A stretch of DNA of 64,000 bases from Nitrospirales bacterium (lineage in GTDB: Bacteria; Nitrospirota; Nitrospiria; Nitrospirales; UBA8639): positions 544,001 to 608,000 of the forward strand of contig OY820905.2 of NCBI GenBank assembly GCA_963555755.3, in the 5' to 3' direction. The position numbers and the translations under genes were made by a program. Below, in pieces: positions 4,705 through 20,496 of the stretch (position 1 is its first letter; every line of letters starts with the position of its first letter). The notes under the pieces are model-generated. The model was not told where the DNA came from, did not search any database, and worked only from the letters and a program-made list of their open reading frames with translations.

Positions 4705-5400
4705 GAATAAGAATTTTAAAAGGCCTTTTTGGCCTGAGCGAAAAGTACCAAAGACCTCGGTGAAGGGTCACTTCCCAGCCTTCGCCGTCCGACATGCTGG
4801 AGTTTACTCTGCGAGTAGGGTCTGACTGGCCTGTTTGCCAGGGATCAGGCCTGCCTTTCGCGCCCTTGGGGCATGTGGACGAGGGAACTGGGCAAAGGGG
4901 AGCGTCGGCTCAGGATCGGAACCGGAATCCGGGGTGGGATTAGGCTGTCAGGAAAAAGTCGTCGATGCGAGCCGGGGCTCGGGGTGGCGCACGCGTGGGC
5001 AGCCCAGGTGTGTGAGAATTTTGGCAATCACCGTGGGATCTTCAATGGCGGCGAGGATGGTCAACGTCCCGCCGCACTGCGGACAGATGGTGATGTCGAT
5101 CGCGAAGACTCGTTTGAGTAATTTCGCCCAGCTCATGCGAGTCCGCGTGGAGACCGATGAGAGCTCGCCGCCCCTATTGGCGGTGTTCGGCGCCTGGTTG
5201 GCCTCACCGGGAACGATCTGGGACCGCAACGCAGCATTGGGGGCGAGCACGCCATGGAAGCGAATGAGATGCAGCCGGGAACGTGGGACGAGCGCCGCGA
5301 GGCGTTGCAGGAATTCCAGCGGGCTCATCACGAGATGGGTGGTGCCATCGCGGTACGGGGTTTTGAGTTGCAACACGACCTCGCCGGTCGGGGTCCGCGC
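4705..5400 (-). mobile_element. IS91/ISCR-family rolling-circle transposase 3' fragment with oriIS end
   Basis: LKTPYRDGTTHLVMSPLEFLQRLAALVP..RLHLIRFHGVLAPN, WAKLLKRVF, CPQCGG; oriIS-like TTTAAAATTCTTATTC on minus strand at 4705-4720. Confidence 0.8.
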
Positions 5401-5533
5401 AGGCGTTTGTGGCCTAGGGCCGGACGGGTGCCATTCATCCCCATGCAAAGCAAGGGGCTTTCCTGGCAGGTCTAGTAACGCGACTCAACCCTCAGATCGG
5501 GATTGCCATATCGCAAGGAATAGTGACTGTGAA

Positions 5534-6342: not shown

Positions 6343-6703
6343 ACGCGCCGGGAGGCAATCGCCTAATCAGCGGTCTCAACATGAGGGGGTTTCTGGCTGC
6401 GAGAAAGGCCCCACCGGTCCCTCGGCCAAGGAGGTTACCCAGGATTGCCACGCATTGTGGCATTTGAGGTGCGTAAAAGGCCGAGGGGGCGTGTTGGCTC
6501 AGGAACTGACCCGGAATACCTGGTGGCAGCAGGCCGTCTGCAATAGAACTACTTGTCCATCCATTTACTGGACACCACACTAGTTATTGGTTTGTTATGG
6601 GAGAAAAATCTGCCATTTCGTCAAGATCCAATGTCAGTGTCCGATAAGGATATTTATCAATTGTAGGATAAGACATATTCAAGTAATGCTTAATGTATCG
6701 TAA

Positions 6704-8152
6704 CTACTCAGGTGTGATGATCTTTGTAGTGAATTGTGCAGGCATAAAGGGGTGGCCGATCATGGCTTGTGAAATGGCTTGCAGCATGTTGCCGCCCTGC
6801 TTTCTCGCGGTAGAAAGGTAGCTTCGTATGCGGGCGAACTGCCTCGCGCCTTGAAGCGTTCGAAAACACCCGGATATTTTGAGGCGGAGCTTGATCATGC
6901 GGATATCCTGTTCTGCCAGATTATTAGTGAAGGGAACCTGTCTGTCATGGAGGAACGCGAGCACGGAGGCTTCATGCTCGCCAAGACGGGTGAGGAGATT
7001 TTGGGCCTTGGTCTTTTTGGGCCGGCCTCGTGACTTTTTCTGTGGCGGTGCCGGAAGGGGGTTGGCCTGCCATCCGAGGGTGAGAAGATCCCTGTATTGT
7101 TTCAGCCAGGGGGTTTTCTGTTCTTCCGTTAACTGTGCGAGTTGCTTGCTGACAAACACGTTCATCGTCAGCAACAGGTCAAACATGTGTTTGGCCCATG
7201 GTTGTTCGTGCTGCTCGAACAGGCACGTGAGTTCCCGCAAATGATGGGCGTTACAGAGGCCGTGGGCACAGTCATAGGAGAGATAGGGTTTCCAGAAATC
7301 GTGGATCAGGCGGCCAGCAAAATCCGGGAGGATCTGGAACTGCTCGATCGCCTCTCTTCCCCGTTTGGCGTGCACACCGTAAAAGGTCAACGTGGCCGTG
7401 CTGGCACTGTGGAGCCAGTGGAGCGTCCCGGCCGTGCGGACGCCGCTTTCATCGGCATGGAGGATGGGACTCTTGCCGAGCGCTTCTTTGACCGCAGTCT
7501 CGAACGGCGCGAGGTGCTCATAACTTCGGCGGGAGGCCTCGTCAATGGTGGCGTCGCTGACCGAGGCGCCATACAGATCAGCCATCATCTGGCTGACACG
7601 GCGTAAGGGGATCAACTGTTGGTTCTGGAGGTAGACCAGGAGGCTGCGAAATCTGGGACCGTACTGTGCCGGCGCAGGCAGGTCATCAGGAAATGACGCC
7701 GTGACCGAGCGGCCGCATTGGGGGCAGGTTTTGATTGCTCCCCGATATTCGGTGACGTCGAGTTTTGGCTCCGGCAGTTCAAAGAGCTGCCGGCGTTCAT
7801 AGCCGGTGACCGTCTCGTTGGTGAGGTCGGCATGGCAGGAACAGGAGTGAACAGGCAGGTGGACCAGGTGGTCTGGGGTTTCCACCTGTTTTAACGTCTG
7901 GCCGGCATGTCCCTGTTGGCCGCCCGGCTTTTTCCCGGAAGGTATGCGCAGGCTCTTGGTTCGGGGCTTGGCCGGTCCATCGGACGAGGGCGGTTTGCTG
8001 CTGTTGCGACTGTGTTGGTCGAGCCGCTGTGCCAGTTCGGTGACATGCGTGGTCAGCGCCTGCCCCTGTTCCTGCAGCGCCAGGATCAGTTCGACGAGCG
8101 CCTCGGGGTTGCTCTTGGCCAGGATGAGGAGTGCGTCGCGGGTGAAGGTCAT
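6704..8152 (-). CDS. IS66-family DDE transposase
   Basis: NSSKPPSSD, KPGGQ.GH.G, CxxC, HADESG, HD.W..Y, H.LC.AH.LREL, FTNNLAEQDIRM.K...KISG.FR. Confidence 0.95.
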   Translation of the reverse strand: MTFTRDALLILAKSNPEALVELILALQEQGQALTTHVTELAQRLDQHSRNSSKPPSSDGPAKPRTKSLRIPSGKKPGGQQGHAGQTLKQVETPDHLVHLPVHSCSCHADLTNETVTGYERRQLFELPEPKLDVTEYRGAIKTCPQCGRSVTASFPDDLPAPAQYGPRFRSLLVYLQNQQLIPLRRVSQMMADLYGASVSDATIDEASRRSYEHLAPFETAVKEALGKSPILHADESGVRTAGTLHWLHSASTATLTFYGVHAKRGREAIEQFQILPDFAGRLIHDFWKPYLSYDCAHGLCNAHHLRELTCLFEQHEQPWAKHMFDLLLTMNVFVSKQLAQLTEEQKTPWLKQYRDLLTLGWQANPLPAPPQKKSRGRPKKTKAQNLLTRLGEHEASVLAFLHDRQVPFTNNLAEQDIRMIKLRLKISGCFRTLQGARQFARIRSYLSTARKQGGNMLQAISQAMIGHPFMPAQFTTKIITPE

Positions 8153-9036
8153 GGCTTGCTCCGGCAGAGGGCCTGTCGGAAGTGGCGGATGAGGGGATAG
8201 AGATAAATTGCCTTCACCGGCACGCGCAGAGCCTTGTCACGGTCCTGCCGGGACCGGCCTTTGGTCTGCCCGACATAGAGCCAGTTCGCGGCCTGATAGC
8301 AGATACCTTTGAAGCGGTCTCGCTCCACAAAGGTCTCCACCAAGTGGACGGGATGGCCGTATTTCTCGATCCAGTCCTGCCGGAGACGTCTCATGACCCG
8401 GCCCAGGAGATGGCTGGCCAGATGCGGCACACGCACCCAGGGCAGGATGAGAAAGCGGGTATTGTTGGTCATGAAGTTGAGGTTGGCGGCTCGGGTGTCC
8501 GGCTCCCAGCCGATAAAGGTGTCGCGCGGGGTGGTTTTCCAGGCGGCGGAACCGAAGAGGAGGCAGGCCAGATCCTGCCCGGAGCGATCCCGCACCAGGT
8601 ACTTGAGATGTTCACCGACCGTTCGGGTGAACCCGAGGTAGTGATGGTGGCTCAGGTAATATCCCACACAACTGGCTTCGTAGGAATGTGAGGTTGGAAT
8701 ATGAATGGACAGGGGCGTCAGGGTCTTGAGAGCTGCGTCGATGTGCGGGGCTTCGGGAGGCATAAACCCCTTTCGGAAAGGGGGGAAGATGTTGCGTCGA
8801 GAGGCGACACGAATCGGGGGCAGCTTCAGGAGCCCGCGATGTTCGAGTTTGTCGATCATGCTGCGGGCGGCAAAGGTTTTCAGTTGTCCGGACGGGGTCT
8901 GCCAGCCCCAGTGCCGACAAATATGCTGGGTTATTTTATGGCGGCTCCAGTCAGGGTGCCGGCAAACCAGATGGCGTAACCAGCACAGATCAGATTGGGG
9001 GAGGCGACGACCTTGACATGTAATCGCTTCATTCAT
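8149..9036 (-). CDS. DUF4338 (DruA-like / Mom-like) protein inside the IS66 element
   Basis: HHYLG, RD.FIGW, NNTRFLILPWV..PHLASH.L, DW...YG.....ETFV....F.G.CYQAANW..VG.T.GR; ATGA overlap with the transposase. Confidence 0.85.
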   Translation of the reverse strand: MNEAITCQGRRLPQSDLCWLRHLVCRHPDWSRHKITQHICRHWGWQTPSGQLKTFAARSMIDKLEHRGLLKLPPIRVASRRNIFPPFRKGFMPPEAPHIDAALKTLTPLSIHIPTSHSYEASCVGYYLSHHHYLGFTRTVGEHLKYLVRDRSGQDLACLLFGSAAWKTTPRDTFIGWEPDTRAANLNFMTNNTRFLILPWVRVPHLASHLLGRVMRRLRQDWIEKYGHPVHLVETFVERDRFKGICYQAANWLYVGQTKGRSRQDRDKALRVPVKAIYLYPLIRHFRQALCRSKP

Positions 9037-9152
9037 GGCCCCGATTATGCCATGGGTGGAGCCGTTAGTCCAGAAAAAAATCAGGCTATAGAAAATTGAC
9101 CTGAGTAGTTACAATGTATCTATTAAACCTGGTTCAGGCAATAGGAAGTAAA

Positions 9153-9672
9153 GAACCCCGCTTTTCCAGGCGGGGCTTTCTTAGAATAAATCCAATTGTT
9201 CCGGATGAGTCGTACGACCGTCATAAAAACGGATGTATTGACTGAAGATCTCTGCTGTGACCTTATCTCCCACCGTTCTCACAAAGTATCCATCCTCCCA
9301 GAATTCTCCGCCCCACAACTCTAGCTGGACACCAGGACATTCTACCCGAATCTCCTTCGCACTCACCGCTTTGAAGATTCTTACCACCTCTGCACTCGAG
9401 TATCGTGGAGGGAAGGACAGAAAGAGATGCACATGGTTTTTGTCTACTTCCAATTCAGCGAGTTCAAACCCATGATGCCCAGCAATCTCTTGAAACAGCT
9501 CCCGAACTCTTTCTCGGACTTCTCCCTGAAGAATCCACTTGCGATATTTGGGTGCCCACACCACGTGATACTTGGTGTCATACACACAGTGGCTGGATCG
9601 CCATGCCACTACCCTAGAGGATTTCTGCTGCCTCGGCAGCACGCATTTTTCTTCCCGCCTTTCCAGGCGGGG
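9153..9672 (-). mobile_element. tnpA: IS200-type element (Y1 TnpA only), 5' end probably frameshifted
   Basis: YHVVWAPKYR, HVHL (HUH), WEDGYFVRTVG, YI; hairpins CCCCGCTTTTCCAGGCGGGG (~9155) and CCCGCCTTTCCAGGCGGG (~9654); nearest ATG (MAIQ) is out of frame. Confidence 0.8.
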
Positions 9673-9916
9673 CAGTCAAATGCGGTTTTTCGTAAAAATG
9701 GGGAGGGCGTACGTTCTTCCCTATTGCATACATTAGTCATGGCGGTGAATCAGGTTGCTCATTCTTTCAAATGTGGTTTAGGGAACGTTCAAAAACGGGG
9801 AACGCATGGAATAATCGAGTCAAGACTGCCCAATACTCTTAGGTAATCACGATGCAAAGCCACCGCGTTACCATTTTCATTGAACCATCATGCGGGAGGA
9901 TTGCTAATGTCCTCCT

Positions 9917-19371: not shown

Positions 19372-20496
19372 ATGAACCAGTTTCACAAGTTTGTTGGGTT
19401 GGACACACACAAGGACACGATTGCGGTGGCGGTGAGTGAGGCGAATGGGGGGCCCACCCGGTACTATGGTGAAATTTCAAACACGCCCAAGGCGCTGGCC
19501 AAGTTGGTCAAGACCCTGACCGCCCAAGGGGACGCGGTGTCATTTTGTTATGAGGCCGGCCCGTGTGGCTATGGGATCTATCGACAACTCACGGCGTTGG
19601 GCCAGGCTTGCGCGGTGGTGGCGCCGTCCCTGATCCCCACGAAACCGGGCGACCGAGTGAAGACGGATCGGCGCGACAGTGAATCGCTGTCCCGGTTGCA
19701 TCGGGCAGGCGAGCTCACAGCCGTCTGGGTGCCGGATCAGGAGCAGGAAGCGATGCGGGATCTCACGCGAGCGCGGGAAGATATGAAAGGGCTGGAACGG
19801 ATCACCAAACAACGGCTCAATGCGTTTCTGCTTCGGCATGGCCGCAACTATGATCGGGGAAAATGTCGTTGGACCCAGGCGCATAGCCGCTGGTTGGCAG
19901 GCCTGAAGTTTGAGAACACGGTGCAACAGATTGTCTTTCAAGAATATATAGAGGCGGTGAAGCAGGCCGCAGGCCGCGTGTCCGGGTTGGAACACGAGAT
20001 GGCGCAAGCGCTAAAGACCTGGGAGCTGGCCCCAATGGTCGAGGCCCTGATGGCCCTGCGCGGGGTGAAGCTGATCACCGCCATGACCGTGCTGGCAGAA
20101 CTGGGGGACCTCAGTCGTTTTACCTCCCCGTCGCAACTGATGGCCTATCTGGGGCTGGTGCCTCGTGAACACTCCAGTGGCCAGACCCGGCGGCGCGGCG
20201 GGATCACCAAGACGGGTAACGGCCATGTGCGGCGGGTGCTGGTCGAAGCCGCCTGGGGATACCGGTTCCCGGCTCGTAAGACTGCGCATCTGCAACGGCG
20301 GGCCACACAGACGTCCGCAGCCGTGCAGGCCATCGCCTGGAAAGCCCAGAAGCGATTGTGCGGGCGCTATCGGCATCTGCTGGCGGCCGGGAAACTCACG
20401 GTGCAGGCTTGTACGGCTGTGGCCCGGGAGTTGGCGGGGTTTATCTGGGCGATTGCGTGTGAAGTCCTGAACCAACCGGCTGTGAACACTCGGTAA
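19372..20496 (+). CDS. IS110-family DEDD recombinase/transposase
   Basis: VGLDTHK, YEAG, KTDRRDS (DEDD); AYLGLVPREHSSG and GITK.GN in the C-terminal domain. Confidence 0.95.
   Translation: MNQFHKFVGLDTHKDTIAVAVSEANGGPTRYYGEISNTPKALAKLVKTLTAQGDAVSFCYEAGPCGYGIYRQLTALGQACAVVAPSLIPTKPGDRVKTDRRDSESLSRLHRAGELTAVWVPDQEQEAMRDLTRAREDMKGLERITKQRLNAFLLRHGRNYDRGKCRWTQAHSRWLAGLKFENTVQQIVFQEYIEAVKQAAGRVSGLEHEMAQALKTWELAPMVEALMALRGVKLITAMTVLAELGDLSRFTSPSQLMAYLGLVPREHSSGQTRRRGGITKTGNGHVRRVLVEAAWGYRFPARKTAHLQRRATQTSAAVQAIAWKAQKRLCGRYRHLLAAGKLTVQACTAVARELAGFIWAIACEVLNQPAVNTR

Follow-up and report, generated by a model that had tools for sequence, protein, structure and literature searches.

An ISBst12-group insertion sequence with a predicted Mom-like gene in a Nitrospirales bacterium, and the transposon-borne family to which the gene belongs

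The window analysed here, a stretch of 64,000 nucleotides from a Nitrospirales bacterium (contig OY820905.2, positions 544,001 to 608,000), contains at positions 6700-9112 an insertion sequence of the IS66 family in which the transposase gene is coupled to a gene for a 295-amino-acid protein. This insertion sequence is an ISBst12-group variant, and its second product is Mom-like by prediction, resembling the Mom protein of phage Mu yet falling short of some Mom features, and is not DruA. It represents a family of Mom-like proteins borne by insertion sequences that is real, widespread and apparently unstudied. The interpretation favoured, tentatively and at somewhat less than even confidence, is that of an active ISBst12-type element whose predicted Mom-like enzyme would mark the element's own DNA as a shield against nucleases; that the enzyme carries out Mom-type chemistry on DNA, to whatever end, is considered fairly probable.

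The element is real and recently mobile. It measures 2,413 bp, and repeat comparison and the genome copies define its ends as a perfect 14-bp terminal inverted repeat, GTAACTACTCAGGT, lying at 6700-6713 (downstream end of the element) and 9099-9112 (upstream end). The 8-bp direct repeat AATGTATC borders it on each side, at 6692-6699 and 9113-9120. Two minus-strand genes occupy its whole length, one for the 295-amino-acid protein (9036-8149) and one for a transposase of 482 amino acids (8152-6704); the stop codon of the first and the start codon of the second overlap in the tetranucleotide ATGA at 8149-8152, from which translational coupling may be expected. The host genome (4.62 Mb, 51% GC against 58% in the element, 99% complete) has repeats over about 11% of its chromosome and holds 14 full-length copies of the element, 99.6-100% identical, plus one 88% fragment. 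An exact 8-bp duplication accompanies 11 of the 14 copies, with a different sequence at each, and such a set of near-identical copies with distinct duplications argues against a chance arrangement. The empty site is present in the public run X11, where position 6691 joins 9113, skipping 2,421 bases (2,413 plus 8) and leaving one copy of AATGTATC; depth on the element in this run is about 50-fold above the flank. Public runs X3, X5 and X13 contain the element with other flanks. In the RNA runs X3 and X13 it appears as contigs with its flanks uncovered, which for a multi-copy element with no silent control is not evidence of transcription. IS66-family elements have inverted repeats that begin with GTAA and duplicate 8 bp of their target, and the perfect repeats, the duplications and the empty site agree with these traits. 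A reading of the DNA made from its letters alone (the sequence-only reading) had proposed an intact element bounded by inverted repeats and a target duplication, with the 295-amino-acid gene coupled to the transposase, and both proposals were borne out.

The 482-amino-acid protein is an IS66 transposase (NF033517, E 9e-88, 294.9 bits against a cut-off of 180). DDE_Tnp_IS66 (PF03050) and DUF6444 match it above the Pfam cut-offs and zf-IS66 below, so that profiles and alignment give the ISBst12-type order of DUF6444, zinc finger and DDE domain; D234, D285 and E414 are found in every one of 26 aligned relatives. The classical three-gene type of IS66 element includes the accessory genes tnpA and tnpB. 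The present element is not of that type: neither gene occurs within it, its two genes filling the space, and no IS66 TnpB (PF05717) is encoded in the 99% complete genome, the control search being positive in 3 of 14. The closest plasmid transposases (40-46%) are likewise stand-alone genes without tnpA, tnpB or the extra gene. Transposases of 35% identity or more were found at 36 loci, 24 of which had at least 900 nucleotides of upstream DNA and were scored; the extra gene adjoins two of these 24 transposases and is missing beside 22. With single-gene relatives and 22 of 24 loci lacking it, the extra gene is best seen as added cargo and not as a stand-in for TnpA/TnpB, as the sequence-only reading had supposed; its alternative suggestion of a transposition cofactor fails in any obligatory form on the same count. 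In a FastTree phylogeny of 55 IS66 transposases, from which loci below 330 amino acids, loci with short upstream DNA and duplicates were left out, the extra-gene trait changes seven times, and at least three of the changes are forced by well-supported branches. The gene is optional cargo, exchanged time and again between transposase families. An 88%-identical IS66 relative in the same genome (C1:2671595-2672978) is uninformative, as another insertion interrupts it before the extra-gene position. A distant IS66 lineage (L239-L246) has a conserved gene of about 100 amino acids directly upstream of its transposase, at the place of the Mom-like gene.

The AlphaFold2 (AF2) model of the 295-amino-acid protein, built with a 75-sequence alignment (predicted local distance difference test score, pLDDT, 89.7), has three parts: a small helical domain at the N terminus, a basic linker in extended form and a GNAT domain. 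The N-terminal domain, three helices and small hairpins, covers amino acids 1-73 (8818-9036, minus strand), and the GNAT domain about amino acids 105-290 (8167-8724, minus strand). The solved structure closest to the model is Mom of phage Mu (8BV8), which ranks first in Foldseek (E 8.7e-6) and first in VIA-align over 48,161 chains (Z 14.1, root-mean-square deviation 3.6, 164 residues aligned; next GNAT Z 12.4). Within a viral structure library, a Salmonella-phage Mom ranks fourth; the best viral (BFVD) match, above the phage Mom proteins, is A0A3G4ZXG3, an uncharacterised giant-virus protein of 469 amino acids with about 300 columns aligned. By profile, the protein matches Pfam DruA/DUF4338 (PF14236) at E 2.6e-32, a match limited to profile positions 67-228 of 297, and Pfam Mom (PF25680) at E 0.0011 and 19.1 bits, below the cut-off of 27.1. 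Its relative L026 clears this cut-off with 30.4 bits, and 23 of 75 family members match Pfam Mom at E<=0.01. Neither the protein nor its alignment found a match when searched by sequence against the PDB.

Mom takes glycine from Gly-tRNA and attaches it to N6 of adenine in double-stranded DNA, at the loose target SASNY; PMC13219725 lists R111, S124 and R151 as required, H58, Y59, D149 and Y159 as important, and a helix-turn-helix insertion as essential. When the Mom sequence, translated from the Mu record, was aligned by MAFFT, its R111 and S124 fell on R194 and S208 of the 295-amino-acid protein, and a profile alignment paired S124, D149 and Y159 with S208, E238 (Glu for Asp) and Y247. The conserved positions of the GNAT domain are H132, Y133, R194, S208, E234, E238 and the motif Y247-x-A-x-N-W; among 75 aligned homologues, R194, Y247 and H132 are found in all and S208 in 74. 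A second set of 28 sequences, comprising 25 loci from a Pfam family search independent of the motifs and three fusions from the same genome, has H, R, S/T, D/E and Y each in 28 of 28. At position 205, in the acetyl-CoA loop, the four commonest residues, none of them glycine, account for all 75 sequences, and position 123, compared with the Mom dimer residue Trp48, is mostly Cys. The likeness to Mom and to GNAT proteins that the sequence-only reading had drawn from motifs held when checked against structures, with most essential Mom residues kept, and on the strength of this likeness a role in DNA modification is the leading idea.

Searched by itself, the N-terminal domain had no match in Foldseek at E<=0.001. 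Its best structural matches are helix-bundle and winged-helix proteins with Z up to 5.8, 10 of 55 members hit Pfam HTH_32 with scores under the cut-off, and a search of the ESM Atlas led to unnamed clusters, so that a winged helix is a weak lead. The domain is missing from the ISAs1 fusions and from the IS701 fusion L026. In comparison with L001, the nonsynonymous and synonymous divergences (dN/dS) are 0.105/0.365 for the Mom-like gene and 0.124/0.387 for the transposase, and the identity of the Mom-like gene equals or exceeds that of the transposase in six of six pairs; judged by these values, the Mom-like gene is under purifying selection like that on the transposase.

The family comprises at least 8,000 clusters from many phyla, mostly of uncultured bacteria. 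Its genes adjoin, or are fused with, transposases of at least seven types: IS66, ISKra4, IS4, IS50/Tn5, IS701, ISAs1 and IS1634. Among 77 neighbouring genes, 62 match a transposase model (46 IS66, nine ISKra4-like, four IS4, two IS1634 and one IS1182) and 15 have no transposase match at E<1e-7; five of the latter were rescanned, giving weak IS66 matches for L056 and L114, DUF6444 for L096, a weak DDE_Tnp_1_assoc match for L052 and nothing relevant for L125. In IS50/Tn5, IS4, IS701 and ISAs1 elements the transposase carries the Mom-like domain as a fusion at its front. Terminal repeats enclose the Mom-like gene in L017 (IS66), L105 (ISKra4) and L006, and in a few IS66 elements, L017 among them, the gene lies behind the transposase yet inside the ends; no clear terminal repeats were found around the gene in L005 (ISKra4) and L048 (IS1634). 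Five loci (L183, L184, L187, L188 and L203), the first four drawn through Pfam, have no transposase in the frames scanned or in the short flank covered, and may therefore be stand-alone or decayed copies. The Mom-like genes at L183, L184, L187 and L188, two of which adjoin a DUF3443 gene, may also be domesticated. A quick tree of 108 GNAT domains shows clusters by partner with repeated swaps, for example an IS1634-linked gene within the IS66 group of the protein under study; 17 label changes were counted among nine partner groups, where the minimum is eight.

The host genome alone holds 74 family matches on four element types, namely 14 separate genes on IS66 elements, 45 ISAs1 fusions, 13 IS4 fusions and two IS50/Tn5-type fusions. 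The ISAs1-type fusion element (about 42 copies; L280:1095-1239, e.g. C1:89417-91320) has two overlapping frames at an A-AAA-AAG run, which was seen in all 19 copies checked as well as in the divergent ISAs1-type element L282; the split frame likely reflects a programmed -1 frameshift that would yield a short and a full-length product. Copies of this element also occur on C1 as head-to-tail tandem pairs parted by the target repeat (e.g. 89417-93234 and 987418-991234). The IS4-type fusion inserts in this genome at GC-rich palindromic or poly-G sites.

A further shared feature lies in front of the Mom-like gene. A sigma-70-like site, TGGACT-17-CATAAT, ends 7 nucleotides upstream of the ATG; its predicted -35 box occupies 9067-9072 and its predicted -10 box, with an upstream TG, 9044-9049, both on the minus strand, in a leaderless-type arrangement with no Shine-Dalgarno sequence. 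The pattern in the family is CTGGACT-17-YANNNT. A -10-like hexamer ends 5-8 nucleotides before the start codon in 42 of 52 homologues (0-18 of 52 at control offsets), the -35 motif (C)[TG]GGA[CT]T occurs 30-40 nucleotides upstream in 47 of 52 against 1.3% of background windows, and a Shine-Dalgarno-like word is present in three of 52. Whether the partner is IS66, ISKra4 or IS1634, and in different phyla, the -35 box is unusually constant as CTGGACT(C). The IS50 fusions have (C/G)GGACA at -35, and the ISAs1 fusion in the genome has CATACT 7 nucleotides before its ATG. A leaderless message is predicted from this pattern, with promoter and gene probably moving together as a cassette.

These features can be joined in one mechanism. 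The element transposes with 8-bp duplications. One leaderless transcript would run from the extra gene into the transposase gene through the ATGA overlap, so that both proteins would be made together, as the conserved promoter pattern suggests. The GNAT domain of the first protein, with the Mom fold in the model and, in the alignments, most of the essential residues and no glycine in the acetyl-CoA loop, would by analogy with Mom transfer an amino-acid group, probably from a charged tRNA, onto DNA adenines. The enzyme is coupled to, and repeatedly fused with, transposases, which suggests that its substrate is the DNA of the element itself; fusion to the transposase front suggests that it works locally, where the transposase binds, at ends, intermediates or fresh insertions. 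There the mark would block restriction or other nucleases, as that of Mom does for Mu DNA, and a protective mark is favoured because the mark of Mom protects. In its widest form, that a portable cassette of leaderless promoter and Mom-like enzyme, on at least seven transposase types, writes a tRNA-derived DNA hypermodification that protects or times transposition, the proposal is given a chance approaching even.

Several observations weigh against the favoured interpretation. Ordinary GNAT proteins follow close behind Mom in the structural ranking (Z 11-12.4 against 14.1), so that its lead is modest, and the family profile aligns only weakly with Mom in hhalign (probability 2%, E 0.024). For R151 of Mom there is no constant counterpart: its place in the alignment is taken by D240, and the adjacent R241 is present in 43 of 75 sequences. 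The pairing of H132/Y133 with H58/Y59 of Mom was made by eye from motif order, MAFFT having left them unaligned. The helix-turn-helix insertion of Mom (175-209) is absent, amino acids 258-275 being a short basic loop without helices in the model. The GNAT fold alone leaves the substrate unfixed, and PMC13219725 describes Mom substrates as not predictable from structure. An anti-restriction footprint was sought in transposase genes with and without the enzyme (24 and 16 genes), and palindrome avoidance was alike (4-mers 0.91 and 0.87, p 0.13; 6-mers 0.80 and 0.80), as was avoidance of SASNY. The gene is also rare on vehicles that meet restriction, with matches on two of 72,556 plasmids, none of 50,697 phages and two viral-contig loci in collections that lean to cultured hosts; the same rarity may be why the family was overlooked. 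Finally, the carriers are three of the most numerous elements of the genome, but elements lacking the gene abound there as well.

Dam methylation controls IS10 and IS50. By analogy, a Mom-type adenine mark at the promoter or the ends could act as a switch, not a shield, setting transposition on or off according to whether the element is unmarked, on entry or just after replication, or marked, when resident. Such a role is rather unlikely overall, yet the -35 box is unusually fixed across phyla and partners (47 of 52, with (C/G)GGACA in the IS50 fusions), its sequence GACTC/GAGTC fits SASNY on both strands as that target is given in PMC13219725, the N-terminal domain may bind DNA, gene and transposase are coupled, and the search for an anti-restriction footprint was null. 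The element's own site, however, is GACTA, which is not SASNY (A stands there in 8 of 47), any sigma-70 -35 box would be expected to contain GAC, the motif lies at one element end only, with one further copy inside, and a DNA-binding fold of the N-terminal domain is weakly supported.

It is unlikely, to about the same degree or slightly more, that the GNAT domain acylates a protein (the transposase or a host factor, say) or tRNA instead of DNA, or that it aids transposition structurally. The usual substrates of GNATs are amines of proteins or small molecules, and such GNATs score nearly as high (Z 11-12.4); DUF4338 is treated in PMC10853773 as a GNAT that might target proteins, and the domain is fused to transposases in four families. 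Set against this, swapping has occurred repeatedly among partners of at least seven unrelated transposase types, which disfavours one specific protein partner; moreover 22 of 24 related IS66 transposases have no such gene, and the conserved residues and the C-terminal YxAxNW are Mom-like.

A mobile gene for anti-phage or self/non-self host defence, Druantia-like or restriction-modification-like, is improbable; a defence function was among the suggestions of the sequence-only reading. The idea has behind it the Pfam family name DruA and the occurrence of DUF4338 in Druantia and in fusion with DndF, as stated in PMC10853773. Druantia type I is a DruABCDE gene set whose DruE is a helicase with DUF1998, according to PMC13316683. 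The 295-amino-acid protein scores E 5e-4 over 50 residues against PADLOC DruA, compared with 1e-82 to 1e-181 for five full-length DruA-like proteins (L175-L179). These came from a phylum-sample search in which 39 of 301 genomes matched the Pfam DruA family: among 30 of the matching loci, five encode proteins of about 400 amino acids that match the whole profile and 25 are of insertion-sequence type, 20 of the latter having a fused or adjacent transposase. In alignment the five show none of the motifs HY, RFL and YxAxNW, and none of them matches Pfam Mom at E<=0.1. No DruE domain (PF09369) was found in the genome, the control search being positive in 8 of 14, and an element of two genes has no room for an effector; on the weak PADLOC score, the missing DruE and the two-gene content, membership of Druantia was rejected. 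The Pfam name DruA spans two groups, and the label 'Druantia DruA' on genes of insertion sequences is misleading. The genes adjacent to L175-L179 are unmatched to PADLOC DruB-E in the short flanks, one of the five lying beside a TmtA-like and one beside a NurA-like gene; DruA-like proteins may serve other systems too.

That the gene is neutral or inactive, and persists only through its link with the transposase or for the sake of its promoter, is very improbable and was rejected: the gene is dispensable for the IS66 transposase group and has three to seven gains or losses on its tree, but purifying selection equal to that on the transposase and invariant active-site residues largely refute neutrality, and the family has reached at least 8,000 clusters with in-frame fusions retained in several families.

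Other mobile and small genes are present in the same window. An IS200/IS605-type unit (9157-9673) starts 45 bp from the end of the IS66 element and contains a Y1 transposase gene (9181-9642, minus strand) flanked by near-identical hairpins at 9157-9176 and 9654-9673. A fragment of an IS91-like Y2 transposase lies at 4948-5448 and an IS110 transposase at 19372-20496. At 2070-2716 a small gene is paired with a PIN-domain gene, a pair that we take to be VapBC-like.

No description of a Mom-like family borne by insertion sequences was found in the full-text literature covered, outside which lie the surveys of Mom homologues by Iyer and colleagues (2009 and 2013), in which Mom-like genes close to transposases may be mentioned; passages from PMC7261163, PMC7824862, PMC4738411 and bioRxiv 2025.09.15.676423 contained nothing relevant. 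Should the enzyme act on DNA, insertion sequences, usually viewed as bare transposases, would bear a DNA hypermodification of their own, and the tRNA-dependent DNA chemistry established for phage Mu Mom in 2023-2026 would extend to thousands of environmental bacterial proteins, a large pool of new and possibly targetable DNA-labelling enzymes. That Tn5-type transposases occur naturally fused to the domain hints at DNA marking directed to particular sites. For genome annotation, the label 'Druantia DruA' can inflate counts of defence systems, as one genome with 74 copies and no DruE illustrates. As assays for Mom exist and candidate residues are named, the DNA-modification reading is directly testable.

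Compared with known systems, the element and its protein each combine likeness and difference. DruA of Druantia type I (PF14236) shares the same Pfam model over about positions 67-228 and an RD.xIGW segment with the 295-amino-acid protein, but is about 400 amino acids long, matches the whole profile and has no Mom-like motifs in alignment; it also acts with DruB-E, none of which is in the two-gene element, and a DruE domain is missing from the genome. In the Dam control of IS10 and IS50, as here, the timing of transposition could depend on an adenine mark carried by element DNA; there the methyltransferase is that of the host, whereas here an element-encoded and chemically different modifier would act. 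With Mom (PF25680, 8BV8), the protein shares the GNAT fold, as its top structural match, an Arg, a Ser, an acidic residue and YxAxN[FW] in register, the lack of a canonical acetyl-CoA glycine and a basic stretch ahead of the GNAT core. It differs from Mom in its low identity (14-18%), in having no helix-turn-helix insertion and no clearly kept R151, and in its added N-terminal domain; its gene is borne by insertion sequences and not by phages, and its activity is predicted. The closest counterpart of the element as a whole is the ISBst12 group, exemplified by ISDge4 of Deinococcus geothermalis, which has a single open reading frame and the ends GTGACTACTCAGCA / GTAACTGCTCAGCA according to PMC12898284. 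Both have one DDE transposase, no TnpA/TnpB, an 8-bp duplication and near-identical ends; the single open reading frame of the group does not hold for the present element of 2.4 kb, in which a second, coupled gene of 295 amino acids is present with its own conserved promoter pattern.

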